DNA of 13,542 nt from Promethearchaeota archaeon (GTDB lineage: Archaea > Asgardarchaeota > Lokiarchaeia > Sigyniarchaeales > SOKP01), in the NCBI GenBank assembly GCA_048941285.1, contig JBHLNS010000070.1, positions 1 to 13,542 of the forward strand, given 5' to 3'. The notes below the pieces were generated by a model. The model was not told the DNA's origin. It was given only the letters and a program-made list of their open reading frames with translations, and did not search any database. A program made the position numbers and the translations under genes. Positions 1-13,542 of the stretch are shown in pieces. Each line of letters begins with the position of its first letter. Position 1 is the first letter of the stretch.

Positions 1-147
1 AAAATTTGGGGAAACCCACTTTATTTTAATACAATAATAGATACTCTAAATGCATGTATTAAGGTCTCACAAAGTCTACTAACAATAAGTTTAATTGCCC
101 CAACATTATTATCTTTGATTTTATTAATATTTTTATACAACCTATAA
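1..147 (+). CDS. 3' end of a probable membrane protein (partial, runs off the left edge)
   Basis: Frame 1 is open from base 1 to TAA at 145-147: KIWGNPLYFNTIIDTLNACIKVSQSLLTISLIAPTLLSLILLIFLYNL*. The C-terminal segment is hydrophobic. It is absent from the ORF track, and its start probably lies outside the window. Confidence 0.6.
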   Translation, partial: KIWGNPLYFNTIIDTLNACIKVSQSLLTISLIAPTLLSLILLIFLYNL

Positions 148-211
148 GTTCAACGGCAATAATTTATCTTAAAAAATTAAAAATTTATTTAAGCAAATCT
201 CTTAATTTTTA

Positions 212-219
212 TTTATATA
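212..219 (+). promoter_or_regulatory. candidate archaeal TATA box for the 7-TM gene
   Basis: TTTATATA lies 21-28 nt upstream of the ATG at 240, the spacing expected for a leaderless archaeal transcript. An alternative box, AAAAA-TTTATTTA, is at about 179-191. The AT-rich background limits certainty. Confidence 0.35.
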
Positions 220-235
220 AAAAAAAAAAAAAAAA
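219..235 (+). repeat. A17 homopolymer tract just upstream of a start codon
   Basis: 17 consecutive A at 219-235, then GCTT and the ATG at 240. Confidence 0.9.
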
Positions 236-239
236 GCTT

Positions 240-965
240 ATGTCATTAAGTCCTATAGATACTGTTAATGGAATATTTTCTATTATTTTTGTAGCGATAT
301 CTTTATTAGTTGGTTTTATAATACTCTCGAGATTTTTTAAGTATAAAGAGAGGATTTATTTATTAGTTGGAGCAACTTGGATTTTTATATCCGAACCTTG
401 GTGGCCCTCCAGTATTTCTTTTTTAGTAGCATTAAATAATGGAGTAGGTATCACTTCAGAAGTTTATTTTTTAATTGGAAATATTTTTGTGCCTCTTGCT
501 ATTATTCTGTGGTTATTCGCTTTTACAGAATTCATGTACACTGAAAAGCGTAAATTGATTTTTTCAATCTTTGGAGTAATTGGAGTAGTATTTGAAGTTT
601 TATTTTTTGTTTTCTTATTCTTGAATCCAAGTTTGATAGGAGCATTGAATGGACCGGTGGACGTAAATTATAAATCTTTTATAATGATATTCTTAATAAT
701 ATTTCTGGCAATTGTTGTAATTACTGGCTTTTTATTTGCTAATCTTTCACTAAAATCTAAGGATCCAGAAGTAAAACTTAAGGGGAAACTCTTAATAGTC
801 GCGTATATCGCTTTTTCAGTCGGAGCATTATTGGACGCTTCAGTACCTTTTAATGAGCCTACAATAGTAATTATTAGACTCATTTTAATACTAAGCGCTA
901 TCTGCTGGTATGGTGGATTTATCCTCCCAAAATGGATGAAAAAATTTCTTCTGAAAAGTAGATAA
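240..965 (+). CDS. stand-alone 7-transmembrane protein of unknown function (sensor-like 7TM)
   Basis: 241 aa with about seven hydrophobic segments and basic loops (KYKER, EKRK, KSKDPEVKLKGK). It has an EPWWP motif after TM2 and a FILPKWMKK C-terminus. There is no soluble output domain and no retinal-binding Lys in TM7. Confidence 0.8.
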   Translation: MSLSPIDTVNGIFSIIFVAISLLVGFIILSRFFKYKERIYLLVGATWIFISEPWWPSSISFLVALNNGVGITSEVYFLIGNIFVPLAIILWLFAFTEFMYTEKRKLIFSIFGVIGVVFEVLFFVFLFLNPSLIGALNGPVDVNYKSFIMIFLIIFLAIVVITGFLFANLSLKSKDPEVKLKGKLLIVAYIAFSVGALLDASVPFNEPTIVIIRLILILSAICWYGGFILPKWMKKFLLKSR

Positions 966-979
966 TATTTACTTTAAAA

Positions 980-993
980 TTTTTTATTTTTTT
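980..993 (+). terminator. candidate archaeal oligo-T terminator of the 7-TM gene
   Basis: TTTTTTATTTTTTT starts 15 nt after the stop codon at 965. Confidence 0.45.
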
Positions 994-1171
994 AAAAAAA
1001 AGGTTTTCATTAAACCTTAGAATTATTTTTTAAATTAACTTATACTCATTTTGAACTCTAAAAAAGATTAACCATCATTGTCTTAAATTCTTATTGCCAT
1101 TTAGATTCGTAATATCTGGATATTTCGCAAATTCATATTCTTTTAAATCATGTATAGATTGATCAATTAAA

Positions 1172-1699
1172 ATGTTAAGTTCTGAAATAGAAAAGCTGGC
1201 GAAAGTAACGTTAATAGGATATCCCGCTACGGGGAAAACTACATTAGCGAAATTATTAGCGAAAAATGAAATAAGTCGATTATATTTCCCTACTCATGGC
1301 TTAGATTTAAAAACGATTAAAGTTGATGATTATATTTTGAGATTATGGGATTTAGGAGGTCAACAGAGTTATCTAAAAACATACTCTAGAGATTATCTTT
1401 TAGGCTCTGATATCATATTTGTCGTTACAGACTCAACACCAAGAAATGTATTAAATTCTAGAGAATTGATTAATTATGCATGCCATTTCGTGGGAAAAGA
1501 TTGCCCAATCATTGCAATCGCGAATAAGCAAGATTTAGTAAAAGCAGATGGTCGAATGGATTTTAAAAGAGTCGAGGATATACTCCATATCAAAACTTAT
1601 GGCTTAACCGCAATCAATCCTTCAGAACGTTTAAAATTAATGAATATTATTAAAAAAGAATTAGATAAAGTAGCAATAAGGAGGAGAATAAAAGAATGA
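1172..1699 (+). CDS. Ras-superfamily small GTPase, Arf/Arl-like
   Basis: All G motifs are present: G1 GYPATGKT, G2 FPTHG, G3 WDLGGQ, IFVVTDST, G4 NKQD, G5 LTA. The PTxG and DxGGQ signatures are Arf-like. There is no Gly2 myristoylation site and no C-terminal CaaX. Confidence 0.92.
   Translation: MLSSEIEKLAKVTLIGYPATGKTTLAKLLAKNEISRLYFPTHGLDLKTIKVDDYILRLWDLGGQQSYLKTYSRDYLLGSDIIFVVTDSTPRNVLNSRELINYACHFVGKDCPIIAIANKQDLVKADGRMDFKRVEDILHIKTYGLTAINPSERLKLMNIIKKELDKVAIRRRIKE
1680..1686 (+). promoter_or_regulatory. Shine-Dalgarno-like site for the 1696 gene, inside the GTPase 3' end
   Basis: GGAGGAG ends 9 nt before the ATG at 1696. The start overlaps the GTPase stop (ATGA at 1696-1699). Confidence 0.55.
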
Positions 1700-2253
1700 A
1701 TTTTACTGAAAATGAAATTTTCGGAGCTGCATTAATAGGTTTTGACATGATTGACGGTCCATTTCTTAAGTGGAAAAAAGAATACGAAAACAATAAAAAA
1801 GGCGTAAACTTAGATGATTTTGCGATGAATTTTTATTTAGCATTCCGTGGTGGAAATGAATCAGTTAAAAAACCAAGAGCGATACTATATGATAATTTTT
1901 ATATTGTAGCATTCCCTAGAGATTTAGAACTGTGTTGCTTGTTTATGAAACCAAAAGATCTTGAAAACAATATTATTCAATTAAACAAAATTGCTTCCAG
2001 AATAATATCCGAAATGGAGACTGTTGAGGATGATGATAGTAGTGCTCAAGATTCTGACGAGAATATAATTGAAGAAATCGAAAGAATAATTCCGAATTTA
2101 TTAAATGGCACAAAAATGACAACTCCGGAATTAAGGAGGTATTTTAAACTAAGTAATTCTGAAATCTGGAAAGTCATGTCAGATTTAGAAAATTCAAAGA
2201 AAATTATCCGGGCAGGGAAAAAAGGCAGGTCAATATTATGGACTGCTACATAA
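1696..2253 (+). CDS. two-domain protein: predicted uDENN/longin-like N-terminal domain, acidic linker, C-terminal winged helix-turn-helix
   Basis: The N-terminal AALIGFDMIDGPFLKW resembles the first beta-hairpin (F-x(4)-GP) of uDENN/longin domains. It is followed by a helix, three short strands (AILY, YIVAF, LCCLF) and a helix. The linker is EDDDSSAQDSDE. The C-terminal IERIIPNLLNGTKMTTPELRRYFKLSNSEIWKVMSDLENSKKIIRAGKKGRSILW fits a wHTH. Confidence 0.65.
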   Translation: MNFTENEIFGAALIGFDMIDGPFLKWKKEYENNKKGVNLDDFAMNFYLAFRGGNESVKKPRAILYDNFYIVAFPRDLELCCLFMKPKDLENNIIQLNKIASRIISEMETVEDDDSSAQDSDENIIEEIERIIPNLLNGTKMTTPELRRYFKLSNSEIWKVMSDLENSKKIIRAGKKGRSILWTAT

Positions 2254-2281
2254 CTTTTATCAAAATTACTTTCTTTAAATA

Positions 2282-3112
2282 CTATCTAACTCTATGATCC
2301 CACTTTCCAATATTTTTGGTATAGTATCTTGAGAACATAATATAACAAATATCGGGTAATTCTCTGTCTATATTATTTACTGTTATATATCTTAATATGT
2401 GGTTAATTAAGAAAATACCAATAAATTCGATATGATAGCTATCTATATTTTTCGAAAGATTCTCACCAGAAAATTTAATATCTAACCCAGTTTTGTCATT
2501 CCATATGACTTCAATGATTATTTCTGGAAAAATTTCTTTTTCAACATGCCAAGTGTTCTCTATTTTCCAAACTTTAGCGCCAAGAAAAGATGATAAATTA
2601 TTTTGATCTTGGATGTTAAGAAGGTTGAATGGTTCACTTCTTTGTTTCAAAACATTCTCCATTAATTCAGTCTTTGTTTTAAATTTTTTTTCAAATGGTT
2701 CAAGCCCCTTGATTTTTCTCTCTATGAAATCCATAATAATATCAATAAATGTGGCACTGTCTTCTCCAGGTACCCAACATACACGCATTCCTGAAAAATA
2801 AAATTTAAATTCAGCATCAATACCATCACCAAATTCATCTCCAAAATAACTAAATGCTAAATGAACATTTACCTCAGGAAACATCTCAATGGAGATTGTC
2901 CAATCTTCACCAAAGTCAATGTTTTCAATTTTTCCTCCCAACTCCTTGTAGACAATATCTTTCAAGATCTCTGGTTTTAAGTTAATAAAAAGAGGATATT
3001 TCATTTTACTAATATCTTCAAGTTCTTTCTCATGAGGACCTCGAACCCCTGTAGCATCAATTTGCCCAATGGTCCAGTATTTCCTTTTTGACATATTGAT
3101 GTTAATTGTCAC
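2282..3112 (-). CDS. hypothetical protein with an internal two-domain duplication, possibly DUF3786-like
   Basis: 276 aa. The GTG start overlaps the upstream TGA (GTGA at 3109-3112). The two halves share LG(G/A)K...W...E(M/I)FPE...FSG...RxI. The first half has GDEF and ED motifs that recall DUF3786. Confidence 0.7.
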   Translation of the reverse strand: MTININMSKRKYWTIGQIDATGVRGPHEKELEDISKMKYPLFINLKPEILKDIVYKELGGKIENIDFGEDWTISIEMFPEVNVHLAFSYFGDEFGDGIDAEFKFYFSGMRVCWVPGEDSATFIDIIMDFIERKIKGLEPFEKKFKTKTELMENVLKQRSEPFNLLNIQDQNNLSSFLGAKVWKIENTWHVEKEIFPEIIIEVIWNDKTGLDIKFSGENLSKNIDSYHIEFIGIFLINHILRYITVNNIDRELPDICYIMFSRYYTKNIGKWDHRVR

Positions 3113-4419
3113 TTTTTTTTGAATTTTGCTATAAAAAAGCCTTGAGTTTGATGAATTGAAGGGAACAACCTTCCTGTTCCAGGAATCGTTTTATTATTAA
3201 TCCTATAGCTTGGAGATATCCATTTCGGTAAATCTAAAGGTTCTAAAGAATCAATGAAATTTAAAATTTGAAGTTCTCCTTCCTCTGGATAGATACTACA
3301 AGTAGAATAAACGAAAATTCCATTAGGTTTAAGTAAATCTAAAGCACTCTTTATAAGTTTCCTTTGTAGGATAATATTTTGCCTTAAGAATTTTTTATTC
3401 TGTCTCAGTTTTAATTCAGGATTAGCCAATAAATTACCTGATCCGGTACAAGGCGCATCTAATAATATTTTATCAAAATAATTTTGAAAGCGAATAGGAA
3501 AAATAATGCTATCTGTATTAATAAGATTTACATTTGACACATTTAATTGTTTAAGTAATCTCTTCATCATTTTGATCCTTTCATGAAGAAAATCTCCGGC
3601 TATAATATGACCTTTATTATTCATAGATTGAGCTATTAAACTAGTCTTTATTCCGGGAGCGGCACACATGTCGCATATCTGATCTTCTTCTCTAGGAGAT
3701 AATGTTTTTATCACTGTTCCAGATGCTTTATCTTGGAATAGTAGGAATCCTTTTTGATAAAAATAATTGCTTAATACCTTAATTTTTTGACATAATGGAA
3801 TCCAAAACATTTCAGGAATATCACTATCTCTCCGATATTCTATTTGATCCTTAGATAATCCTTCTATTATTTGTTTGTAAAAGTCTTCAGTACTTGTTTT
3901 TCTATGGAGATTATTAACACGTATAGTAATTTCAATATCATCAACGTCTCTATTCATAAATTTAATATTTTCTTTAAGAAAATCCATCTTCATAATGGGG
4001 AGTAGATGCTTAATCATGAAACTAGGGATTGATTCGAGAATGCTGAGTTTTTCCACATCATCTTTCTTAATAAGTGCTTTTTTCCATGAGAAAGATTTGA
4101 GTTGATGCAAAAATTTTTTATCAAGATTTATTATCTCATTTATAATCTCTTTTTCAGTAGCAGATTCCCATAATATTCTATAAGTAACATATAAATATTT
4201 AGAAAATGTACGAGCTTTTAGAGAATCAGACCCTCTAAGTGTCTTTTTTACAACAAAATTAATTTTATTCCAAAATCGAATAATTTCATTATAATAATGA
4301 AGAACAGTGGGATTTTTACGTAAATCTACAGGTAGGGAACTAATTTCTTTTTTAACTAACCTTGAAATTAATTTAAAGATAATCTGTATATCCGAATCTT
4401 TAATCTCAAATTCCCTCAT
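3109..4419 (-). CDS. RsmB/NOL1/NOP2/NSUN-family RNA (cytosine-C5) methyltransferase
   Basis: Motifs seen: TIRVNNL, FQDKAS, SAM-binding DMCAAPGIKT, motif IV DKILLDAPCTGSG, motif VI YSTCS and GFFIAK. Both catalytic cysteines are present. The N-terminal helical region resembles a degenerate NusB-like domain. The substrate (rRNA or tRNA) cannot be assigned. Confidence 0.95.
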   Translation of the reverse strand: MREFEIKDSDIQIIFKLISRLVKKEISSLPVDLRKNPTVLHYYNEIIRFWNKINFVVKKTLRGSDSLKARTFSKYLYVTYRILWESATEKEIINEIINLDKKFLHQLKSFSWKKALIKKDDVEKLSILESIPSFMIKHLLPIMKMDFLKENIKFMNRDVDDIEITIRVNNLHRKTSTEDFYKQIIEGLSKDQIEYRRDSDIPEMFWIPLCQKIKVLSNYFYQKGFLLFQDKASGTVIKTLSPREEDQICDMCAAPGIKTSLIAQSMNNKGHIIAGDFLHERIKMMKRLLKQLNVSNVNLINTDSIIFPIRFQNYFDKILLDAPCTGSGNLLANPELKLRQNKKFLRQNIILQRKLIKSALDLLKPNGIFVYSTCSIYPEEGELQILNFIDSLEPLDLPKWISPSYRINNKTIPGTGRLFPSIHQTQGFFIAKFKKK

Positions 4420-4453
4420 TATAAAATGATTTGCATCCTAATTATGTAATTTT

Positions 4454-4462
4454 AAAAAAAAA
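4454..4462 (-). terminator. candidate T9 terminator after the 1107-aa gene
   Basis: A9 on the plus strand reads as T9 on the minus strand, starting 18 nt past the stop at 4480. Confidence 0.4.
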
Positions 4463-4479
4463 TAAGTTTATTTTAATAA

Positions 4480-7400
4480 TTAGTTTACATCTGCCGGTAT
4501 TATTATTCCTTTTCTTTTTAGTTCAATTATTGTACTTATTATTTCATCTCGACTTGCTTTTCTTCCTGCTAACGCAAAATTTAATAGGCTTGATATAAAG
4601 AAGAATTTCCGTTCCTTTTGAATCTGTTCAGCTACTTCAATAAGAGCTTTTTCTAATCCTTTTAGTTTGATAACACCATAATGTTTTCCTAGTTGAAGGG
4701 GATAGACCAATGTGATATTGAAATGTCTTTCAATTAGATCATCGGTTGTTATAAAAGGAGTTAATTCTCCAGAAAACTCTTTTAAAAATGTCCCATATCG
4801 CTTCTCAAAATCTTCCGTGAATGCCCATTGATTATCCTTCAGTTTTTCTGAAGATGAACCATCTAATATTAAAGCAACTCGAACATAATCACCATCAGCA
4901 ATAACTATTTTGAAGTCACCATAATCCATTTCAAATTCTTTTCCTTTCGTTGCTGTTGATCCTTTTTTAATCTCACTTCTAAATTGCGAAATTGCTTGTA
5001 AGAATCCAGAGATTAGGTCAGAATCAATATCTTCTAAAGATATTTGTTTATTGTATATTGATACGCCTACTTCTTTATGGATAATCATAATGTAAGATAT
5101 TTTTACTAAATCATCCAATATCATTGATTCACCAGCCCAAAATCGCTTTAACTTTGAGTGTCTTATAGTTCTTGCTGTTAAGGCTGCCGCGATTGCTAAC
5201 GCACCTATAATAATATAGGGTAGATATGTAAGAAAAGCATCCATAAATAATATAAAATCATCTACAACCCGAATATATCCTGAGGTTAATTCAGCACTAG
5301 TATAAAATCCTTCTTCAACAAATCTAGCTCGAATTGAAAATTTATTTCCAGTATTTTGAAATTGTAAAGTTGCAAAGGCAATGCCCTCGATACTTGATCT
5401 TGAAGTGGTTTCATATACCGGAATCCCATTAGCATTTAAAACTTCGAAAATTATATCAGAACTTTTTAGTGGTTTTCCCCCATAATCTGCTATTATTACG
5501 GAAAAAAATGAAGTCCCTTTCATATATTGTGAGGCTGGTGTTTCTACAAATTCTATTATAGGAATAATTTTAAAAATTTCATAAGTCCCATTCACATCAA
5601 ATCTTATTGAATGCCATAGTGAAGTCACATTAAATTCAAAAAACCCTTGAGAAAATTCAGCGTTATCTATTTCACCTTCCCAAACTCCACTTCTTATTCC
5701 AGTATCTAGTATATTTATACCAAAATTTTTTAGCATCAAATCGGAAGGGGTTAAGTCATTACTGTTTATTCCTAAACCAATTGATGATGAAATATCAGAA
5801 GTTATAACATTTTGTATATATAGATTTATGGTAAACTCATTAACGGATACAGTAAATCCATTATCAGCGGTAGAATTTGTATAATAAACTAATATCAATT
5901 TAGCTTCATTATTATTCGATTCATTTAAAACGTTTAAAAAAAGCCATGTGAATCCAGCATCAAATCTAAGTACTGTAGTGGTTTCATCTTTATCAGCAAA
6001 TTCATTTATTCTGCTCATTAAAATCCAATTTGCATCGTTCTGTGTATTATCGAGAATGTCGAATGTTTTATTTCCTTTAAAGAGTGCTAAAGCTGCTAAT
6101 TCTAAATTATCTGGTTTACTGACATTAGATGTAATTCTTATATCCATTTGAGGTACTAAAGGGTTAGGATATGATGCAATCCAGTCATAATAATCAATAT
6201 TCCATAATGAGCTATCGAAATCCTCAAGTACATTGAAACTAACAAAATAAGACAGGTTATCGGTTAAAGCTTGAGCATTAAAGTAATTATCATCATTGTA
6301 CTGGAATGCTTCAATTGATTGTTCTCCAAAAATTGAGGTGGTTCCATTAATAATCGCTACATCAGTAGGGAAATGCAGTTGCTGAATTAGTGGATCATGA
6401 CGTTGGATCGTATCTAGGCTTTCTAATTCACCCACTTCCACTTTAAATTGATTAATAGATAGATCAATATCACTGATGCTAAGATATTCGAGTTTGAAGG
6501 TAAGAGTATTATTTCCCCCAAAAGGAGATAATGGATTATTATCCATAAAATAAAGTAATTGTAATTTTTCATGAGGGGTTCTAACAGAATAGTATATTAA
6601 AGTTTCGTTTCCTTGTTTGATATCATATTCAAGCGGTACCCAGTTTGATTGAAACATTCCTGCCTTATAATTCCTTATATATAATTGAGACCAAAATACA
6701 TCAGCAATATTGGAGATGTTCAATACAAGATAGATATCAAAACTAAAAATGTATTTGTAATGATCATACAACCAATTAAGCTTATGGCTCTCTCTAAATA
6801 ACTGAAAAAAAGTAAAAGGGGAATTCTCTAATGGTTTTAAATTGAATGTAACATCAACAGTTATATTTTTAGTGTCAGATACCCTATATCGATCTTCATC
6901 AACAAATCTAAAAGATCCGAGATCTCCTTCCAAATAAGTACCATTTTTTATCTGTACATCTCTCACATTATTCACTGTGTAATCATCGAAATAAAAATCA
7001 GGTGAAATAGCAAAAGTAGAACCTTCGTCTACATTATCAGTTGATCCTGCATCAGGATTAAAATATAAGAATTTGGGACCTCCACCTAAATCTGTATCAT
7101 CTCGAGGAATTTTTACTCTAAAAGCAAACCAATATTTTATAATTCCACTGTTAACAGTAAAGTTTGTAGTTTTAATATCTAAGTATATTGGCCCTGATCC
7201 TGAATTTTTAAAATCAAATATTTCCCAATGAGTTGCGTAACTTATAGGATGGGGTTTTTTTATTAACCCTAAAGTAGTGCTTGGATTTGGTGTTCCATTG
7301 GTATCATTTAGACAATCTACTATCGCAATTTCCCATGAATTCTCATCTGTAAATGAGGTTGGGTTATTGATGTCTTGAATTAGGATACTAACATTGTTTA

Positions 7401-7803
7401 CATACTGGCTTATTTCTATCGCAAATTTTTGAAAAATAAATGTTGGCCCATTTCTAGAACTAAAAATGAATTCAGAAAAATCACTTTCAATATTTCTAGT
7501 ATAATTTATCGCAGTAATATTTTCAAAAGTCATTTTTGCGTAAGATATATTATTGTTTGGTATAAAAATTTCTGGTTGATTGTTCAGATTAGGAAATTCT
7601 CGATTGATATAACAATCTTTTTTGATTTCCGTAATACTACTGAAATCTTTACCTGTTCGATTAATCAATTGAGGAGAGATAGAGTAAGGTTCATAGGTTT
7701 GACTCGTATTATGAAAATCTGAGAATTTGGTGAAGTATGGTAAACTAAGGCTTACTATTACAAAGAATAATATAAATAGCGATCTGTTCCTAAAATATTT
7801 CAT
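4480..7803 (-). CDS. large single-pass receptor-like membrane protein: signal/anchor, beta-rich ectodomain, Ig-like stalk, TM helix, cytoplasmic longin-like domain and winged-helix-like end
   Basis: The N-terminus is basic then hydrophobic (MKYFRNRSLFILFFVIVSLSL). About 830 aa are Asn/Thr/aromatic-rich with many NxS/T sequons. The stalk VIIADYGGKPL...EGIAFATL...IRARF is Ig-like. The TM YLPYIIIGALAIAAALTA (about aa 860-877) is followed by basic residues. The tail YIMIIHKEVGVSIY...DLISGFLQAISQF...KIVIADGDYVRVALIL...FEKRY is longin-like. SD-like GGGAG lies just upstream of the ATG. Confidence 0.8.
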   Translation of the reverse strand: MKYFRNRSLFILFFVIVSLSLPYFTKFSDFHNTSQTYEPYSISPQLINRTGKDFSSITEIKKDCYINREFPNLNNQPEIFIPNNNISYAKMTFENITAINYTRNIESDFSEFIFSSRNGPTFIFQKFAIEISQYVNNVSILIQDINNPTSFTDENSWEIAIVDCLNDTNGTPNPSTTLGLIKKPHPISYATHWEIFDFKNSGSGPIYLDIKTTNFTVNSGIIKYWFAFRVKIPRDDTDLGGGPKFLYFNPDAGSTDNVDEGSTFAISPDFYFDDYTVNNVRDVQIKNGTYLEGDLGSFRFVDEDRYRVSDTKNITVDVTFNLKPLENSPFTFFQLFRESHKLNWLYDHYKYIFSFDIYLVLNISNIADVFWSQLYIRNYKAGMFQSNWVPLEYDIKQGNETLIYYSVRTPHEKLQLLYFMDNNPLSPFGGNNTLTFKLEYLSISDIDLSINQFKVEVGELESLDTIQRHDPLIQQLHFPTDVAIINGTTSIFGEQSIEAFQYNDDNYFNAQALTDNLSYFVSFNVLEDFDSSLWNIDYYDWIASYPNPLVPQMDIRITSNVSKPDNLELAALALFKGNKTFDILDNTQNDANWILMSRINEFADKDETTTVLRFDAGFTWLFLNVLNESNNNEAKLILVYYTNSTADNGFTVSVNEFTINLYIQNVITSDISSSIGLGINSNDLTPSDLMLKNFGINILDTGIRSGVWEGEIDNAEFSQGFFEFNVTSLWHSIRFDVNGTYEIFKIIPIIEFVETPASQYMKGTSFFSVIIADYGGKPLKSSDIIFEVLNANGIPVYETTSRSSIEGIAFATLQFQNTGNKFSIRARFVEEGFYTSAELTSGYIRVVDDFILFMDAFLTYLPYIIIGALAIAAALTARTIRHSKLKRFWAGESMILDDLVKISYIMIIHKEVGVSIYNKQISLEDIDSDLISGFLQAISQFRSEIKKGSTATKGKEFEMDYGDFKIVIADGDYVRVALILDGSSSEKLKDNQWAFTEDFEKRYGTFLKEFSGELTPFITTDDLIERHFNITLVYPLQLGKHYGVIKLKGLEKALIEVAEQIQKERKFFFISSLLNFALAGRKASRDEIISTIIELKRKGIIIPADVN
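5815..6975 (-). repeat. two diverged tandem copies of a ~199-aa ectodomain module (protein-level repeat)
   Basis: Matching segments: DVQIKNGT (aa 282) / DVAIINGT (aa 481); VTFNL / VSFNV; FDIYLVLNIS / MDIRITSNVS; SNWVPL / ANWILM; NET / DET; LSINQFKVEV / VSVNEFTINL. Confidence 0.75.
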
Positions 7804-7989
7804 TAAAATCTCCCTTTTTAACTTAAATTTAAAGAATTAAAAAAAAATATTTGATAAACAAATGAAATCATATACTTTTAAAATTAGGCTTTCTAATATG
7901 ACAGAAATATCTTGATATGTCGATGTAAAATTATAAAGTGAAAAAAAGAAGAACAGAAAATATATTAAATAATTTTTGAGATGTCGTAA

Positions 7990-8508
7990 TTATTCTATAT
8001 TAAATCTATTTTTGATGATATCAAAAAGTATTATGCCTAGTGTGGCTAAAATCATCTCTGGGATCAGCACATAAAAGAAATATATTATTATTGGTAATCT
8101 AAAAGAAATGTACAAAATTATCGCAACATATATTGAAATAATAATAGCATATAATATGCCACCTAAATATTTTAAATAACGCTTGTCTCTAAAAAAGATA
8201 ATACAATATAAAGCAGGTACATTCACAATACAGCTAATTAAATCTATTGGTCCTAAGGGGGACGTAAGATTAACAAAAAAAACTCCTAATACGTTGCCAA
8301 TTAATCCTTCTAATGGAAAAAGTATACACATACCTACAATTAATTCTGCTACGCGGAACTGAAATTCTAAAAAACTTATTGGTTGGAATAAATAACCTAA
8401 AGCAGTGTATAATGCAGCAGTAATTGCGATTAATGCTATTTTAAAACTAATACTTTCTCTTTCAAAACCAAATGATTTTTTTTCTAATTCATTGCTCTCA
8501 TGGTTCAT
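7990..8508 (-). CDS. queT: QueT-family membrane protein (putative 7-deazaguanine precursor transporter, ECF S-component-like)
   Basis: IALIAITAALYTALG...PISFLEFQFRVAE...LGVFFVNLTSPLGPID matches the QueT pattern (AALY...PISF..QFRxxE...GxxxxN..SPxG..D). It has about five TM segments. Confidence 0.8.
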   Translation of the reverse strand: MNHESNELEKKSFGFERESISFKIALIAITAALYTALGYLFQPISFLEFQFRVAELIVGMCILFPLEGLIGNVLGVFFVNLTSPLGPIDLISCIVNVPALYCIIFFRDKRYLKYLGGILYAIIISIYVAIILYISFRLPIIIYFFYVLIPEMILATLGIILFDIIKNRFNIE

Positions 8509-8587
8509 TAGATCAACCTTATAAAAATTCTAGTAACTAACGAAAATATTTAAGATCTATTTAAAAATATTATTAATAGAAAAAACC

Positions 8588-8604
8588 AAAAAAAAAAAAA
8601 AAAA
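8588..8604 (-). terminator. T17 tract, probable terminator of the Loki-CTERM gene
   Basis: 17 consecutive A on the plus strand read as T17 on the minus strand, starting 15 nt after the TAG stop at 8619. Confidence 0.6.
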
Positions 8605-8618
8605 TTATGTTTTGATAG

Positions 8619-9482
8619 CTATGTTCTTTTCTTTTTCATTATAACAAAAATTATTCCAATAATACTAGCTGCAGCAACTCCAAAAATAATTGTAACTTCA
8701 TAACCAGGAATTCCGGCTAATTCTATTGAGAACTCATAAATGGTAGTACCTGTATCATCCTTTATTTTATACCCGATCCAAGCACCATAAGTCCTATCAT
8801 AAGTCCAGATCTCAGTACAATTTTCTAAATATTGAAAAGTATATAATGGAACATTCCAATCTAGAGCTTCTGCATGATGAACAATAGTATTTCCGATATT
8901 TTCCCATTTTGGTTCCCAAATAAAAGCACCAAGATATTGGTCTACATTAGTTGGAAGTTGAGCAAAGAAAGCCCCTGCAGTATGCAATGAAATATTATAT
9001 GGAATAAAGAAATAAGTGTTGTACAAGGTATTAATATAAGTTATAAGATTTGCTGGATTATAAAAGCTACGTACTATCTGTCCTACACTATCGGGGGTAT
9101 TGCTAAATGCGCCTGTAGTCCAGTCCCAATTGCTCGTATTATATAATGCAATATCATACAATGGTAAACCTAATATAGGAAAAATTTCGGTAGATGCATC
9201 AAATTTTGCACTAAAATTTACTGCAGTTACGAGCGATTTACTTCTTGCTCCTACATTAGCAGCTCCCTTACCAAAAATCTCTATTACAGAAACCCAGCCT
9301 ATACCAAATAGATCCTCTAAACTTTGGTTATTTACCGTTCTGACTTTTAAAATTTTTTGATTACCAGAAGCACCACGAAATGTATAGGTACCTATTTGAG
9401 GAATAGCTGGGGGTGTAATAGCTAGACTTATAGTAAAAAGTATAATAAAGCCTATCATCCAATTAGATCTTTTCATTTTCAA
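8619..9482 (-). CDS. secreted cell-surface protein with a C-terminal Loki-CTERM (PGF-CTERM-like) sorting signal
   Basis: N-terminal signal peptide MKRSNWMIGFIILFTISLA. The C-terminus is IPGY, a TM helix and the basic tail MKKKRT. Several NxS/T sequons are present. The true start may be the ATG at 9476 rather than the TTG at 9482. Confidence 0.8.
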   Translation of the reverse strand: MKMKRSNWMIGFIILFTISLAITPPAIPQIGTYTFRGASGNQKILKVRTVNNQSLEDLFGIGWVSVIEIFGKGAANVGARSKSLVTAVNFSAKFDASTEIFPILGLPLYDIALYNTSNWDWTTGAFSNTPDSVGQIVRSFYNPANLITYINTLYNTYFFIPYNISLHTAGAFFAQLPTNVDQYLGAFIWEPKWENIGNTIVHHAEALDWNVPLYTFQYLENCTEIWTYDRTYGAWIGYKIKDDTGTTIYEFSIELAGIPGYEVTIIFGVAAASIIGIIFVIMKKKRT

Positions 9483-9532
9483 CCCTAATCTTAATTTTTT
9501 AAGTAAGAATTCTGATTAATTTATTATTTACT

Positions 9533-9622
9533 AATTGATTATATAAATATTACTATAAATTGATAATGATTTTTCAATAGATCAATTTAGAAGAAAAAAT
9601 TGATTTAAAATTGATATCAATT
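9533..9622. promoter_or_regulatory. divergent promoter region with six AATTGAT/ATCAATT half-sites, including the perfect 14-bp palindrome AATTGATATCAATT
   Basis: AATTGAT at 9533, 9558, 9598 and 9609; ATCAATT at 9581 and 9616; palindrome at 9609-9622. A TATA-like TTTATATA lies on the minus strand at 9540-9547. Confidence 0.5.
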
Positions 9623-9650
9623 AATTAAATAGAACAAGTTTAGTAAAATT

Positions 9651-10430
9651 ATGCCAACTTTTTCCCCTGAGAAAAATATTGAAATTTATTATGAAATTAG
9701 TGGAAATAATTCTGGTCCAAAAATGGTTTTAATTCATGGTCTCTTTCTAAATAGCGATACTTGGAAATATCAATTACCCGCATTTGAACCTGATTTCAAT
9801 ATCGTTAGGTTTGATCTTCGAGGTCATGGACGATCTACTAAACCAAAAAAGCGATTTACAATTAGAAATTATGTAGATGATATGTTTGCCTTATTAAATC
9901 ATCTCAATTGGAATAATGAGCTTTATTTAGTAGGTCATTCACTAGGAGGTATGATTGCTCTTGTGTATGGCCTCGAAAATCCTTCCTATGTAAAAAAAAT
10001 GGTAGTTGCCGATAGTTTTTGTTTTATCAGCCAAGAAGCCATAACAGATGTTCTAGGCCGTATAAATAGTAGTAAACTGGAGAAGTTTGCGTTGGGAATT
10101 AGTATAAGAGGCCTACTCCCTTATGATGACGAAGTTGCTCAGTATGTTGCTAGTTTAGTCACTGAACATATGACAAAGAAGGATTGTTTACAAGCAACAG
10201 CTGCTTCTGCAGGTTTTAATATTTGTGAAAATCTTAAAAATTTACAGATTCCTGTATTAGTTTTAGTTGGAAAGAAAGATATTACAACTCCAGTTTGGGC
10301 AAGTGAAATGATACATGAGTGGTTACCTCAGTCAGAATTAATAATAATTCCGGATGCTGGACATTTAATAATTTTTGATCATCCTAATGAATTTAATGAT
10401 CTCACATTATCTTTTTGGAATAAAAAATAG
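9651..10430 (+). CDS. alpha/beta-fold hydrolase (PcaD-like esterase/lactonase/thioesterase)
   Basis: Oxyanion motif IHG, FDLRGHGRS, nucleophile elbow GHSLGG, acid in GKKDITTP, and His in DAGH. Confidence 0.92.
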   Translation: MPTFSPEKNIEIYYEISGNNSGPKMVLIHGLFLNSDTWKYQLPAFEPDFNIVRFDLRGHGRSTKPKKRFTIRNYVDDMFALLNHLNWNNELYLVGHSLGGMIALVYGLENPSYVKKMVVADSFCFISQEAITDVLGRINSSKLEKFALGISIRGLLPYDDEVAQYVASLVTEHMTKKDCLQATAASAGFNICENLKNLQIPVLVLVGKKDITTPVWASEMIHEWLPQSELIIIPDAGHLIIFDHPNEFNDLTLSFWNKK

Positions 10431-10451
10431 AAATATATATTTAATTTTATT

Positions 10452-11483
10452 TTATCCCCATTTAATTACTCCCGCATTCCATGCCCAACCAATACCAGCA
10501 GCGGTGATAACAACAATATCTCCCTGTTTTATCTTTCCACTTTTCACGCCATATTCTAAAGACAGAATTCCATCATTTTGACCATTGTGACCTATTTCTT
10601 CAAAATATGTTGCTTGTTTATATGGATCTACTCCAACAGCTTTGGCAACATATTCAAAGGCGCTTCTTTTCATATGTAATAATGCTAAATAGTCAATATC
10701 TTGTCTGGAATATCCAGATTGATTGAGAGCATCATCGATTACTTTAATAAAAGCATCCATTGAAAATTTATCAAGTCGTTGTTTTAATCCTTCTGGATCG
10801 GGCACATCCAAATAAATTAAGTCATTATCAATAGCTTGTTTTGAAATTGGTTGAATAGTTCCACCTGCAGGTACATAAACATCATCAGCAAATCTTCCAT
10901 CTGAAATAGCAGAAATCCCTAAAATTTCATTAGTCTTATAATCACTTCTTAATATAGCAGCTGCACCACTAGCCGCTAAACTAATCATGAATCGAGAATT
11001 CTGATTTTGATAGTTGATTAGATCAGAGTTTCTATAACCACTTGCAACTAAAACCCTTTTTATATTAGGATTTGTTTGCATTAAACTTTTTCCCAATAAC
11101 ATCCCAACTAAGAAAGTTCCACATCTTTGATTAATATCAAAAGCCCAAGGTTTAATGGGATTTCCTAACAGTTGCTGAAGTTTAATTCCGTAGGTCATCA
11201 TTGGTCGTTCAGCATAGACCTCTCCAGCCCAAATAATTAAATCAAGATCATTAGGTGTGATGTTTGCACGATCTAGAGCCTGAATACTTGCTTTTGCTCC
11301 CATCGCCACTGTATGATCTTCAGGACCGGGAACAGTTTTACTCTTTAAACCAAATTTCTCTTCAAGAATATTTTTGGGAATTCCTGATTTCTTTGAAATA
11401 TATTCGCTAGTATGTTTATATTTAGGGAGATAAATCCCCCATGATTCTAATCCAACTGAGCGGGGTTCCATTTGATTATTCAC
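10452..11483 (-). CDS. 3-oxoacyl-ACP synthase III-like (thiolase-fold) condensing or acyl-transfer enzyme, non-canonical
   Basis: Motifs seen: GIYLP, AFDINQRCGT (Cys121), AAAIL, VPAGG, LLHMKRS (His270), GHNGQND in place of the FabH GN motif, and AAGIGWAW. The true start is probably the ATG at 11471, judged by SD spacing. Confidence 0.88.
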   Translation of the reverse strand: MNNQMEPRSVGLESWGIYLPKYKHTSEYISKKSGIPKNILEEKFGLKSKTVPGPEDHTVAMGAKASIQALDRANITPNDLDLIIWAGEVYAERPMMTYGIKLQQLLGNPIKPWAFDINQRCGTFLVGMLLGKSLMQTNPNIKRVLVASGYRNSDLINYQNQNSRFMISLAASGAAAILRSDYKTNEILGISAISDGRFADDVYVPAGGTIQPISKQAIDNDLIYLDVPDPEGLKQRLDKFSMDAFIKVIDDALNQSGYSRQDIDYLALLHMKRSAFEYVAKAVGVDPYKQATYFEEIGHNGQNDGILSLEYGVKSGKIKQGDIVVITAAGIGWAWNAGVIKWG

Positions 11484-11487
11484 CTAT
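11478..11487 (-). promoter_or_regulatory. Shine-Dalgarno site (AGGTGA) overlapping the ligase stop codon
   Basis: The minus strand reads ATAGGTGAAT. The TAG is the upstream stop, and AGGTGA lies 8 nt before the ATG at 11471. Confidence 0.6.
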
Positions 11488-13034
11488 TTCAATTCTCTTT
11501 TTAATATTTTACCAGTAGCACTAGTAGGGAGATTATCCCTTATCTCAAAATATTTAGGAATTTTATACTTTGCTAGTCTCTCAATTAAATAATTTCGAAT
11601 TTCGTCTACATCTAATGTTTTACCAGCTTTTAAAGTTAGAAAAGCTTTTCCAACTTCACCCCATTTTTCATCAGGCACACCGATAACAGCAGCTAAATCA
11701 ACTGCAGGATGCTTAAATAATAACTCTTCAATTTCTACGGGATATACATTCTCACCCCCACTGATATACATCTCCTTTCTACGCCCTACGATGTAATAAA
11801 AACCCTCATCATCTTGCATTGCTAGATCTCCTGTATGTACCCATCCATCAGGCTCAATAGTTTTTTCCGTTTCTTCTGGTTCATCCCAATATCCCGAAAA
11901 AATATGTGGTCCCTTCAGTAGTAATTCTCCAACTACCCCTTTTTTAACAACTTCATCTGTTTTTGTGTTAATTATTTGCATATCACAATGAAGTACAGGT
12001 AGACCAACCGAAGTTGGTTTTTCTTTAATTCGTTTTTCTGGCAAATAAAAATTATTTGGTCCAACCTCAGTTAACCCATATCCCATTTTAAATAGTTTAT
12101 TCTTATCCCAATATTTTTCCATTATCGCAACTGGGCATGGAGCTCCACCAGATATGAATATCCTTACTGATTCAAAATTAGTTTTAGCAAAAAGAGACGT
12201 GTTTGCCATCATATGAAACATTGTAGGAACCCCTATGACAATCGTACATTTTTCTTCTTCAATAACTCTAATAGTTTCTCTAGGAATAAAATCTCCCATT
12301 AATATTGTTTTTGCCCCAAGATGATAAAAAGGAACTAAAAGAACATTCCAACCTCCAGTATGAAATAGAGGAAATAGTAATGGTTGTATATCATCAGGTC
12401 TTAAACTCCATGAAAGTATTGTATTTATAGAATTCCAAAATATCAATCTATGAGATAGTATTGCTCCTTTAGGAAGTCCAGTTGTGCCCCCCGTAAATAA
12501 AATAAGATGAGGATCATCAAAATCTAAAATTGGCCGTTCAACATCTGAATCCAAAATCTTTCTTGTTAAATCTATAGTATTAGAATCATTTAATGCTGAA
12601 TCATTTCCCATTATTACACTATGGTTAATAATTGACTTTTTCTTCAACTCTGAAACTGTCTCTGCTAATTTTGATTCATAGAAAAAAATAGAGGGCCCTG
12701 TTTTCTTAATTAAATACTCAATTTCTTGAATTGATAATCTTATGTTAAATGGAACAAGAATTGCTCCTATTTTTCCAGTTGCTAGAAAGAGATCTATGCA
12801 TTCTATCCTATTTGTTGAAAACATAGCAACACGATCTCCTTTAGCTATCCCCTCCTTTAATAATAACCGAGCTAATTTATTCGCTCTTAAGTTCAGATCC
12901 TTAAAAGTATATAATTTTTTCTCAATATTATCAAATACTGCTTCATTATCGGGGGTTAATAGCGCACGGCGCTTTGCCCAATCTCCTATCCAAGAAAAAT
13001 CGTTAGGAATTGAATAATTTCCTGCTTTAAACAC
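11484..13034 (-). CDS. acyl-CoA synthetase / AMP-dependent ligase (ANL superfamily, fatty-acid-CoA ligase-like)
   Basis: P-loop LFTGGTTGLPKG, PLFHTGG, SGGAP, GYGLTE, GELLLKGP, GWVHTGD, GRRKEMYISGGENVYP, and the catalytic Lys in ATGKILK. Confidence 0.95.
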   Translation of the reverse strand: MFKAGNYSIPNDFSWIGDWAKRRALLTPDNEAVFDNIEKKLYTFKDLNLRANKLARLLLKEGIAKGDRVAMFSTNRIECIDLFLATGKIGAILVPFNIRLSIQEIEYLIKKTGPSIFFYESKLAETVSELKKKSIINHSVIMGNDSALNDSNTIDLTRKILDSDVERPILDFDDPHLILFTGGTTGLPKGAILSHRLIFWNSINTILSWSLRPDDIQPLLFPLFHTGGWNVLLVPFYHLGAKTILMGDFIPRETIRVIEEEKCTIVIGVPTMFHMMANTSLFAKTNFESVRIFISGGAPCPVAIMEKYWDKNKLFKMGYGLTEVGPNNFYLPEKRIKEKPTSVGLPVLHCDMQIINTKTDEVVKKGVVGELLLKGPHIFSGYWDEPEETEKTIEPDGWVHTGDLAMQDDEGFYYIVGRRKEMYISGGENVYPVEIEELLFKHPAVDLAAVIGVPDEKWGEVGKAFLTLKAGKTLDVDEIRNYLIERLAKYKIPKYFEIRDNLPTSATGKILKRELK

Positions 13035-13041
13035 CTAGCTA

Positions 13042-13051
13042 ATTCACCTAT
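13042..13051 (-). promoter_or_regulatory. Shine-Dalgarno site (AGGTGA) overlapping the membrane-protein stop codon
   Basis: The minus strand reads ATAGGTGAAT. The TAG is the upstream stop, and AGGTGA lies 9 nt before the GTG at 13034. Confidence 0.6.
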
Positions 13052-13542
13052 ACTGCTTTATAAATTGGCCATTTTCTCCAAATATAAGCAAACAAGATCT
13101 CAATCCATAAAAACCATAATACAAAAGGAGTTGGATTCATTTCCCAATAATTTGTTGTATCTCCGAATAAAATAGGTGATAAAAGATAATACCCAAAAAA
13201 AGTTAATGTTCCAATGCCTATGACTAATAGAAATCTAAAAAGAAAGTTCTGCCATTGAGGAAATCTTTTTGGCCAGTTATCAAAAAATAACGAAACTAAT
13301 ACTACTGCACAAATAAGGAATATTGCATAAGTAATACTCATCATATACCATCCCTTGAATCTAGTTACATCATCTGGAATTATTCCACTAATAGCTACAA
13401 AGAAAGGATCAAAGAGATATTGAGCAATATAAGGTCCTAAAATAGAAATTAATAAACCTAATACTGTACAAGCTCCAGCTGCTATCATCCCGATAAAGGG
13501 TTGTTTTCTTCCTAACTTACTCCATGGCCAATATTCAAAAAC
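13048..13542 (-). CDS. polytopic membrane protein with repeated (F/W)xxWP motifs, possible transporter (partial, runs off the right edge)
   Basis: The frame stays open upstream of the track's ATG at 13488 to the window edge (VFEYWPWSKLGRKQPFIG-MIAAG...). Motifs FEYWP, FDNWP and WRKWP are separated by pairs of TM helices. Confidence 0.75.
   Translation of the reverse strand, partial: VFEYWPWSKLGRKQPFIGMIAAGACTVLGLLISILGPYIAQYLFDPFFVAISGIIPDDVTRFKGWYMMSITYAIFLICAVVLVSLFFDNWPKRFPQWQNFLFRFLLVIGIGTLTFFGYYLLSPILFGDTTNYWEMNPTPFVLWFLWIEILFAYIWRKWPIYKAV

Follow-up and report, generated by a model that had tools for sequence, protein, structure and literature searches.

Does a small GTPase of an Asgard archaeon act directly on a nucleic-acid-binding protein encoded in its own operon? 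The question is raised by two overlapping genes in a 13,542-nt stretch of DNA (hereafter the window) from a Promethearchaeota archaeon of the class Lokiarchaeia (GenBank assembly GCA_048941285.1, contig JBHLNS010000070.1, positions 1 to 13,542). The first gene codes for a small GTPase (P0001) and the second for a partner protein (P0002) with a predicted N-terminal domain of the longin type and a C-terminal winged helix-turn-helix (wHTH). We tentatively read the pair as a cognate GTPase/longin switch with a nucleic-acid-binding, probably autoregulatory, output, a reading that falls a little short of probable. It draws on the conserved pairing of the two genes, the predicted folds of the partner, the natural replacements of its C-terminal module and a conserved element in the promoter region of the operon.

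Gene order, coupling and conservation of the pair

The argument depends on five features of the window:

1,106–1,142, forward strand: conserved 37-nt AT-rich element TTCGTAATATCTGGATATTTCGCAAATTCATATTCTT with partial dyad symmetry, a candidate operator or upstream promoter element
1,143–1,171, forward strand: promoter-proximal region with a TATA candidate resembling TTTTAAAT and a conserved T-rich TTAA block
1,172–1,699, forward strand: small GTPase gene P0001 (open reading frame (ORF) call, 175 amino acids (aa), ATG start), an Arf/Arl-like member of the Ras superfamily
1,680–1,686, forward strand: Shine–Dalgarno (SD)-like GGAGGAG of P0002, within the codons of the C-terminal RRR of the GTPase
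1,696–2,253, forward strand: partner gene P0002 (185 aa, ATG start), coding for a domain of longin order (residues ~8–110), an acidic linker (111–121) and a wHTH (122–184)

The TGA of P0001 (1,697–1,699) and the ATG of P0002 (1,696–1,698) share the tetranucleotide ATGA, and 9 nt separate the GGAGGAG from the ATG of the second gene. A preliminary description of this DNA had pointed to the overlap and to the SD site; coordinates, ORFs and site were all located as it described them. Of the 39 loci with both genes called, 25 show an overlap (of 4, 11 or 20 nt) and 11 a separation of 0–5 nt. SD-like sites precede the P0002 orthologue in 35 of these loci (GGAGG in 24) and the GTPase gene in only 2. 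To judge from the sequences, this is the pattern of an operon whose first gene is leaderless or SD-less and whose second gene is translationally coupled to it. Metatranscriptome X1, from one sediment, contained three 151-nt contigs, two within the GTPase gene (95–99% likeness) and one within the partner gene (<90%); run X2 contained no contigs matching either gene. Three short contigs are too few to establish transcription, a shared transcript or a start site.

The GTPase gene lies directly upstream of the partner gene, on the same strand, in 52 of the 62 distinct genomes whose partner locus was fetched. This includes every winged-helix form (47 of 47), every form with a C-terminal domain of the helix-hairpin-helix (HhH) type (4 of 4) and the one form with a poly-arginine (poly-Arg) tail. 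The preliminary description had named a lack of conservation as a refutation, and this neighborhood survey shows the pair to be conserved. The 10 exceptions, from four other families, are short stand-alone longins of 107–134 aa. A GTPase homologue lies on the opposite strand at a distance of about 3 kb in two of them, and none lies in the fetched flanks (4 kb per side) of the other eight. Gene order persists from 91% down to approximately 23–35% partner identity and across all three C-terminal modules.

With P0002 as the query, matches turned up in 60 of the 201 genomes sampled from the phylum, and full-length matches were confined to its own family (38 of 40 genomes) and a sister family (3 of 3). 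A distant relative used as the query detected the N-domain family in 143 of the 160 other genomes of the same class (Lokiarchaeia) and in 17 of the 239 genomes of the remaining sampled families of the phylum. The organism’s own genome has a single copy of the P0002 family. Of 594 candidate sequences, 488 proved to be relatives of P0002 at E ≤ 0.001. Identity to P0002 was 74–91% in the 120 that were listed, and those with a name were all annotated as ‘hypothetical protein’ in metagenome-assembled genomes of the Promethearchaeota/Lokiarchaeota type. In a collection of 1.84 billion proteins the family forms 29 representative clusters at 50% identity. By these sequence counts, it is a narrow and well-kept family.

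The GTPase and the longin-type domain of its partner

P0001 has the complete set of G motifs (GYPATGKT, T41 in PTHG, WDLGGQ and NKQD), in line with the preliminary description of it as a complete small GTPase. The P-loop, the switch-I PT.G, D60/G63 and NKQD are invariant in the 22 orthologues that were aligned, and the catalytic Q64 is near-invariant (H in two distant ones). The best match among all Pfam families is Arf (5e-18, 65.6 bits for a cut-off of 22.3), and further matches are Roc (2e-13, 51.1 bits), Ras (1e-10, 41.9 bits) and Gtr1_RagA (1.3e-5, 25.2 bits). The NCBIfam model TIGR00231 (small_GTP) matches at 9.2e-12. The top solved relatives in a sequence search of the PDB are Arl3 (1.4e-15), followed by Arl2, Arl8 and Arf1, and two chains titled ‘Arf GTPase’ (8oul and 8ouk) match at about 1e-10. 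At the level of sequence, then, the earlier label of Arf-like holds.

This label is deliberately loose. With 84 matches in the 3.55-Mb genome of the organism, among which P0001 ranks 13th, and further matches in 9 of 14 control genomes, the Arf model is unspecific. The defining feature of the Arf family is an N-terminal amphipathic helix that swaps with the interswitch (Vargova et al., 10.1101/2024.02.28.582541). The P0001 sequence leaves no room for such a helix, as only 10 residues precede K11, where strand 1 starts, and orthologues such as those of loci L047, L048 and L031 begin 1–3 residues ahead of this strand. Because the model is unspecific and space for the helix is missing, we refer to P0001 as Arf/Arl-like and not as an established member of the Arf family. 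Many of the 84 places matched by the Arf model lie inside ORFs of 300–700 aa, and at least six are clustered on one contig (C35:15734–37532). There, a weak match to the Folliculin model (C35:36858–37034; E 0.0057, below the cut-off) sits just ahead of the GTPase domain in the same 493-aa frame, which may be a longin–GTPase fusion.

P0002 is assigned to no Pfam or NCBIfam family. Its AlphaFold2 model, built from 16 sequences, has a mean predicted local distance difference test score (pLDDT) of 78.2 and three parts. The N-terminal part is composed of two strands (residues 8–17 and 21–29), a helix (39–51), three strands (62–64, 69–75 and 78–84) and a second helix (90–110). This order (beta-beta-alpha-beta-beta-beta-alpha) is the longin order, and the model of an HhH-type relative has the identical one. 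A disordered linker (residues 111–120) follows. Structural comparison of residues 4–112 with VIA-align (48,161 target chains) retrieved the TRAPP Bet5-type longin 3cue_A (Z 9.8, root-mean-square deviation (rmsd) 2.6, 106 residues aligned), MglB (Z 9.4–9.5; 3t1r_A and 3t12, ‘MglA in complex with MglB’), a Lokiarchaeal longin dimer (8yqg_B, Z 9.1) and the roadblocks of MK-D1 (Z 8.7–9.1). Further matches were CPLANE, Mon1–Ccz1 and AP-4. The strand order and the Z scores of 9–10 to solved longin/roadblock domains, only modestly higher than the stated background of 7–8, agree with the longin fold that had been read from the letters of the sequence. The other landmarks named at the time are also present: the LIGFDMIDGP hairpin (residues 13–22), the acidic linker (net charge −6 over residues 111–121) and the basic C-terminal part, which is mildly so (+4).

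F16, D17, G21 and P22 of the hairpin are found in all 27 family sequences, as are Y47, F50, G53, P60 and F68, and in the model G21–P22 forms the opening of strand 2. A ‘GP motif’ at the start of strand 2, or at the end of the loop leading into it, has been described in C9orf72, SMCR8, FLCN and NPRL2 (PMC12290439, section 2.4). The same source reports the motif as absent from FNIP2, NPRL3 and those longins it names as lacking GTPase-activating protein (GAP) activity (adaptins, TRAPP subunits and DENND proteins), and as present in one class of Asgard longins. The residues in C9orf72 are W33–D34 and G38–P39 (PMC12290439, section 2.4), and the spacing of F16–D17 and G21–P22 in P0002 is the same. 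Close to the hairpin, the basic loop K59–P60–R61 is a possible arginine-finger candidate, although not an invariant one (P60 in 27 of 27 sequences, K or R at position 59 in 25, R61 in 20).

We searched the organism’s genome with the Pfam models of GAP-type longins, NPR2 (PF06218), Folliculin (PF11704) and C9orf72-like (PF15019), and none matched P0002 at E ≤ 10; the last of these matched nowhere in the genome and is little informative. Because the three models fail to match, P0002 is only a candidate member of the FLCN/NPRL2/SMCR8/C9orf72 subfamily. The idea of a uDENN-type domain in the preliminary description is thus retained as far as the invariant F-D-x3-G-P hairpin goes, which is the GP motif, and it finds no counterpart in the Folliculin, NPR2 or C9orf72-like models. 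As a lead only, the nearest cluster to P0002 in the ESM Atlas (score 0.79, below the lead level of the tool) carries NPR2 on 19% of its members.

GP-motif longins also occur as stand-alone genes. In one other family (L039, 3920–4372 on the reverse strand and 4589–5020 on the forward strand; L040 and L050), a longin of about 127 aa lies head-to-head with a 143-aa gene without a Pfam match. The start of the 143-aa protein (…DSDLVAGFFSAIQSF…) resembles the C-terminal region (…DSDLISGFLQAISQF…) of a 1,107-aa membrane protein encoded in the window, and the longin and the 143-aa gene may be a two-longin pair. In two genomes of one genus (L036, 3494–3817 on the reverse strand; L037, 2224–2541 on the forward strand), the gene placed head-to-head with the longin codes for a protein with a PF0610-type winged helix and a zinc ribbon (Zn_ribbon_PF0610 1e-14, PF0610-like_N 1.3e-12, HTH_11 1.9e-7), so that longin and winged helix are separate genes.

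Binding between the GTPase and the longin domain was addressed by complex prediction with two copies of P0002 residues 1–112, GTP, Mg and the GTPase, each protein having its own alignment. The complex reached an ipSAE of 0.57 (runs of 0.59, 0.55 and 0.57), compared to 0.34, 0.00 and 0.00 for the controls, with a partner pLDDT of at least 85 and a contact agreement of at least 91%. Calibration on 80 solved complexes and 110 mismatched pairs had 58 of the former and 2 of the latter reach the mark; both mismatches and only 7 of the solved complexes did so at an ipSAE of 0.60 or less. The prediction therefore lends weak support to GTPase–longin binding. Even this pass may reflect likeness, because MglA–MglB and longin–GTPase complexes are already solved. 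The nucleotide-dependent partnership foreseen in the preliminary description gains this much (0.57 against 0.34) and nothing stronger from complex prediction.

Such a result is compatible with mere co-transcription, in which the two proteins would not bind, the longin-wHTH protein would be an ordinary regulator sensing a small ligand or a partner, and the GTPase would be an unrelated passenger or target. Furthermore, Tran et al. (2024) state that the GTPase genes of MK-D1 do not as a rule share operons with roadblock or longin genes. We regard mere co-transcription as highly improbable, since the gene order holds to approximately 23–35% partner identity and through three C-terminal modules, the second gene starts within the stop region of the first in 25 of 39 loci, and small GTPases are known to use longin/roadblock domains as platforms. 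Longins that stand alone, with no GTPase gene next to them, are a different, shorter form.

The C-terminal module and the upstream element

The P0002 model’s C-terminal portion contains three helices (residues 122–136, 143–150 and 154–166) and two strands forming a hairpin (170–176 and 179–184) at a pLDDT of 87–95. With VIA-align, residues 121–185 match the Z-alpha domain of ZBP1, the ArsR-like PH1932 and DNA-bound NolR at Z 10.1–10.3 (rmsd 1.6–2.4, 60–62 residues aligned), in addition to many ArsR/MarR regulators. When 27 family members were searched against Pfam, HTH_27 matched in 11, HTH_11 in 9 (best 7.3e-8) and the ArsR family HTH_5 in 5 (1.1e-7), and one member (P0131) matched HTH_DeoR above its cut-off (1.3e-7; 29.9 bits for a cut-off of 21). 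A family-profile search of the PDB led to MarR/ArsR/Lrs14 regulators at E of about 1e-3. P0002 itself matches only SdpR among the HTH models (0.087, NCBIfam), and AdcR in a profile-to-PDB search (7.8e-4). Helices 2 and 3 are extremely conserved across the family. The C-terminal wHTH of the preliminary description is thus recovered by structure (Z 10.2 to solved winged helices), and family members match transcription-factor HTH models.

The module is not the same in all partners. In distant ones (one family with three genomes and another with one), the longin and the GTPase neighbor are kept and the C-terminal end is a helical domain with a GLG.KR hairpin, which matches the Pfam model IMS_HHH at 0.067. 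The model of one such relative has a pLDDT of 74.4, and its residues 118–183 align with the C-terminal part of AF1548 (Z 8.4, rmsd 1.6, 57 residues) and with the N-terminal domain of Rad51 (Z 8.2). By these values, modest for a small helical domain, the replacing domain is probably an (HhH)2 domain. The partner of another lineage ends in about 10 arginines. Because winged helices, HhH domains and poly-Arg tails have nucleic-acid binding in common, the output of the pair is more readily sought in a nucleic acid than in a protein, which is our main argument. We infer that the winged helix of P0002 binds nucleic acid.

A candidate target is located in the promoter region of the operon. We aligned the 260 nt ahead of the GTPase start from 29 of 30 family-level loci (one was dropped by the ORF caller). 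Beyond the flanking coding sequence, little is conserved except for one block 50–80 nt upstream and a T-rich TTAA block nearer to the start. The element defined from the first block (1,106–1,142) lies 30–66 nt ahead of the GTPase start, and in several genomes its arms are perfect (for example, ATAATA-N6-TATTAT or TCGATATTATCGA). A weight matrix was built from 27 orthologous sites, leaving out the organism’s own site and the poorly matching loci L015 and L018. Across the 3.55-Mb genome, the own site scores 34.3 bits, the runner-up, which lies within an ORF, 19.6 and the following site 17.4, with a maximum of 17.8 in the reversed-genome control. Only the right-hand sub-motif, for which the own-site threshold is low, matched more often than in the control (166 compared to 91). 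Thus, at the sequence level, the element is specific to the promoter region of its own operon and is a suitable candidate for an autoregulatory site.

Archaeal promoters as generally known allow a further reading of this region. The first gene, with the TATA-like TTTTAAAT approximately 30 nt ahead of its ATG and no SD site, probably has a short leader or none at all. The location of the element upstream of this TATA candidate suggests that a factor bound to it would suit the role of an activator. We also considered the element as an RNA hairpin and rejected it, as its fold is less stable than that of shuffled sequences (z +1.19) and the window has no Rfam match. HhH-type operons (L031, L032 and L034) have a different conserved inverted repeat, TTGTCG-N9-CGACAA, approximately 100–140 nt ahead of the GTPase start. 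From these three close relatives, the upstream element seems to switch together with the C-terminal module.

The nucleic acid could also be an RNA. The winged helix (or the HhH domain or poly-Arg tail) would then bind RNA or the ribosome, and the pair would act on translation or RNA handling. RNA-linked proteins are indeed among the structural neighbors of residues 121–185 (the SelB winged helices on SECIS RNA at Z 9.0, eS25 and Z-alpha), poly-Arg tails attach to polyanions of any kind, and the mycobacterial HTH-containing protein MfpC, a GEF (guanine nucleotide exchange factor), is reported to act on mfpA at the level of translation (PMC11343762). Against this stand the upstream element, which gives no RNA-structure signal, the absence of any Rfam family in the window and the best sequence-profile matches, which are to families of DNA-binding regulators. 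On balance, an RNA target appears quite improbable.

The findings suggest how a two-gene, co-translated switch of the Lokiarchaeia might work. The longin domain, probably a homodimer like other archaeal longin/roadblock proteins, would serve its own GTPase as a docking platform. Given the F-D-x3-G-P hairpin of GAP longins and a basic [K/R]59-P60-R61 loop nearby, it would most likely stimulate GTP hydrolysis, and it may additionally sense the nucleotide state. The winged helix would bind nucleic acid, with the element upstream of its own operon as the likeliest target. Docking of the GTPase on the longin platform would then alter the occupancy of the DNA, making P0002 a GTP-gated, autoregulated transcription factor. 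Control could run in either direction: the GTPase could control DNA binding, or the DNA-bound partner could control the GTPase.

A number of findings weigh against this mechanism. As to the longin and its GAP role, P0002 has no longin or roadblock match in Pfam or NCBIfam at E ≤ 0.1, and no such model is among the 25 families listed (of 77) that the 27 family members matched. A Foldseek search of the PDB with the P0002 model returned no match at E ≤ 0.001 (best, ZitR at 1.8e-3 and LAMTOR at 2.0e-3), the VIA-align scores exceed their background by little, the candidate arginine finger is variable, and the Pfam models of GAP-type longins miss the protein. As to the winged helix, no Pfam HTH model matches P0002 itself, and the charge of the C-terminal domain across the family is modest (0 to +8). 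The regulon search in the own genome, with the whole element and three sub-motifs, identified no second convincing site, and no co-variation was seen between variants of the element and the recognition helix. Another factor could bind the element, or it could be an extended core promoter. Protein-binding winged helices also match residues 121–185 (Rpa2 at Z 9.2, the cullin WHB at Z 8.5–8.6 and ESCRT-II at Z 8.3). Moreover, winged helices serve in protein binding in NPRL2/3 and in many Asgard or eukaryote-like proteins.

The last two points, and the regulon search that identified none, would be consistent with a cognate GTPase/longin pair without a nucleic-acid role. The winged helix would in that case be a dimerization or protein-docking module, and the output a membrane, cytoskeletal or other protein effector. 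NPRL2/3, with a longin plus winged helices (PMC3521125), would be a model for such a protein, and the extreme conservation of helices 2 and 3 could reflect a conserved protein partner no less than a conserved DNA site. A protein output sits less well with the matches of family members to prokaryotic transcription-factor models (HTH_11, HTH_5 and DeoR, all near 1e-7), with the exchange of the module for a probable HhH domain or a poly-Arg tail, which share nucleic-acid binding and not one protein partner, and with the conserved, unique and partly symmetric element within the operon’s own promoter region. For these reasons, we consider it rather unlikely. The minimal GTPase-to-transcription switch of the preliminary description is retained in its paired genes and in its longin and wHTH folds, and its proposed binding of nucleic acid is deduced from the upstream element and the domain swaps.

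Neighboring genes, known systems and meaning

Convergent with the GTPase operon is a pair of reverse-strand genes that are likely co-transcribed: a 276-aa ORF without a family match (2,282–3,112) overlaps by 4 nt the end of the gene for an RsmB/F-type RNA methyltransferase (3,109–4,419; 3e-48). The next gene (4,480–7,803, reverse strand) codes for the 1,107-aa membrane protein, which has no Pfam or NCBIfam match. In its approximately 245 cytoplasmic C-terminal residues, a roadblock/longin-type beta-beta-alpha-beta-beta-beta order and a winged-helix-like end can be recognized by eye. This would be the same kind of module as P0002, three genes away. BLASTP of P0002 against the C-terminal 246 aa detected no similarity (E 6), a PDB sequence search with the C-terminal piece found nothing, and the Atlas gave leads only (best 0.84, to unnamed clusters). 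Between 7,990 and 13,034 the window holds genes of ordinary kinds, for a QueT transporter (1.1e-20), an alpha/beta hydrolase (2.6e-32) and, one immediately after the other, a KAS III-like condensing enzyme (1.6e-17) and an enzyme of the AMP-binding acyl-CoA ligase type (9.7e-79). A 287-aa secreted or membrane protein without a family is encoded at 8,619–9,482.

A close eukaryotic parallel to P0002 is found in GATOR1, where NPRL2 and NPRL3 also have an N-terminal longin followed by winged helices (Zhang et al., 2012, PMC3521125). NPRL2 carries the GP motif and is a GAP for a Rag small GTPase (PMC12290439, section 2.4), and the GP motif is present in P0002 too. The differences are several. NPRL2/3 have three winged helices, whereas P0002 has a single one that resembles the HTH families of prokaryotic transcription factors. 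The pair has no DEPDC5 and no second longin subunit, and P0002 is a single-copy protein in its genome. Its client would be Arf/Arl-like and not Rag, it is fixed in an operon with the GTPase and it does not match Pfam NPR2. Asgard NPRL2-like longins fused to two-component signaling domains have also been described (Liu et al., preprint). C9orf72–SMCR8 and FLCN–FNIP share with P0002 the aromatic-D-x3-G-P hairpin at the start of strand 2. C9orf72–SMCR8 acts on Arf GTPases, and the question of which Asgard GTPases partner the GP-motif longins is raised in the same source as the motif (PMC12290439). Unlike these complexes, P0002 is without DENN or d-DENN domains, has a candidate arginine finger of unclear conservation and is fused to a winged helix.

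Prokaryotic systems offer parallels to the gene pair. MglA–MglB of bacteria and archaea likewise consists of a small Ras-like GTPase encoded beside a GAP of the roadblock/longin superfamily. P0002, however, has the longin order and not the roadblock order with its N-terminal helix, and it has an added winged helix; P0001 is Arf/Arl-like, with the G3 glutamine (WDLGGQ). In the actinobacterial conservons and the Mfp system (CvnA-D; MfpB-E), a small GTPase is teamed with MfpD/CvnB, a roadblock GAP, and with MfpC/CvnC (DUF742), which contains an HTH. Work on these systems has demonstrated that the latter is a GEF, and a role for it as a DNA-binding effector is considered possible there. P0002 unites in one chain a roadblock/longin-type domain and an HTH that conservons keep separate. 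Furthermore, the pair has two genes instead of four, no adjoining histidine-kinase-like gene and a longin in place of an MglB-type roadblock. It is also archaeal, with an Arf-like GTPase, and DUF742 is not among the 25 families listed (of 77). P0001–P0002 is thus not a member of the conservons, but by analogy it may work in a similar way. Finally, the neighborhoods of MglA group 3 place a GTPase beside a protein with a C-terminal wHTH, which was read as a link to transcription (Wuichet and Sogaard-Andersen, 2014). There, the N-terminal domain is receiver-like and not a longin, and the GTPases are bacterial and of the MglA type.

Literature searches on the longin/roadblock-wHTH-GTPase architecture in Asgard and other archaea, which did not extend to the asCOG supplementary tables where the family is possibly listed, found no description of the operon. 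The view in the preliminary description that no characterized system with this architecture is known stands, within these searches, for the operon as such and calls for qualification with regard to its parts, for which NPRL2/3, the conservons and the Asgard NPRL2-like fusions are precedents. The combination of a small GTPase with a longin/roadblock regulator is already known, and the link to HTH proteins has been made before. New are the fusion of a GP-motif longin to a winged helix of the transcription-factor type, its constant pairing with an Arf/Arl-like GTPase in a two-gene operon throughout an entire Asgard class and the conserved upstream element specific to this operon. A bolder proposal, which we judge to be unlikely, is that an Asgard small GTPase directly gates a DNA-bound longin-wHTH factor in a one-step switch from G protein to gene. 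In the longin, the ancestral GAP longin behind the catalytic subunits of GATOR1, folliculin and C9orf72–SMCR8 would then have a living model, and the winged helices of NPRL2/3, now structural, would be relics of such a DNA-binding ancestor.

Asgard genomes encode dozens of small GTPases and many longin/roadblock proteins, and which regulator belongs to which GTPase is mostly unknown because, as Tran et al. (2024) note of their gene order, the genes are generally not in operons. The operon described here provides a class-wide cognate pair, rare in Asgard archaea, of two small soluble proteins on which the GAP-longin hypothesis is testable. If the winged helix binds the upstream element, a eukaryote-like GTPase switch would be wired to a prokaryote-style output, transcription. 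If true, this would bear on the uses of such switches at a time before endomembranes.

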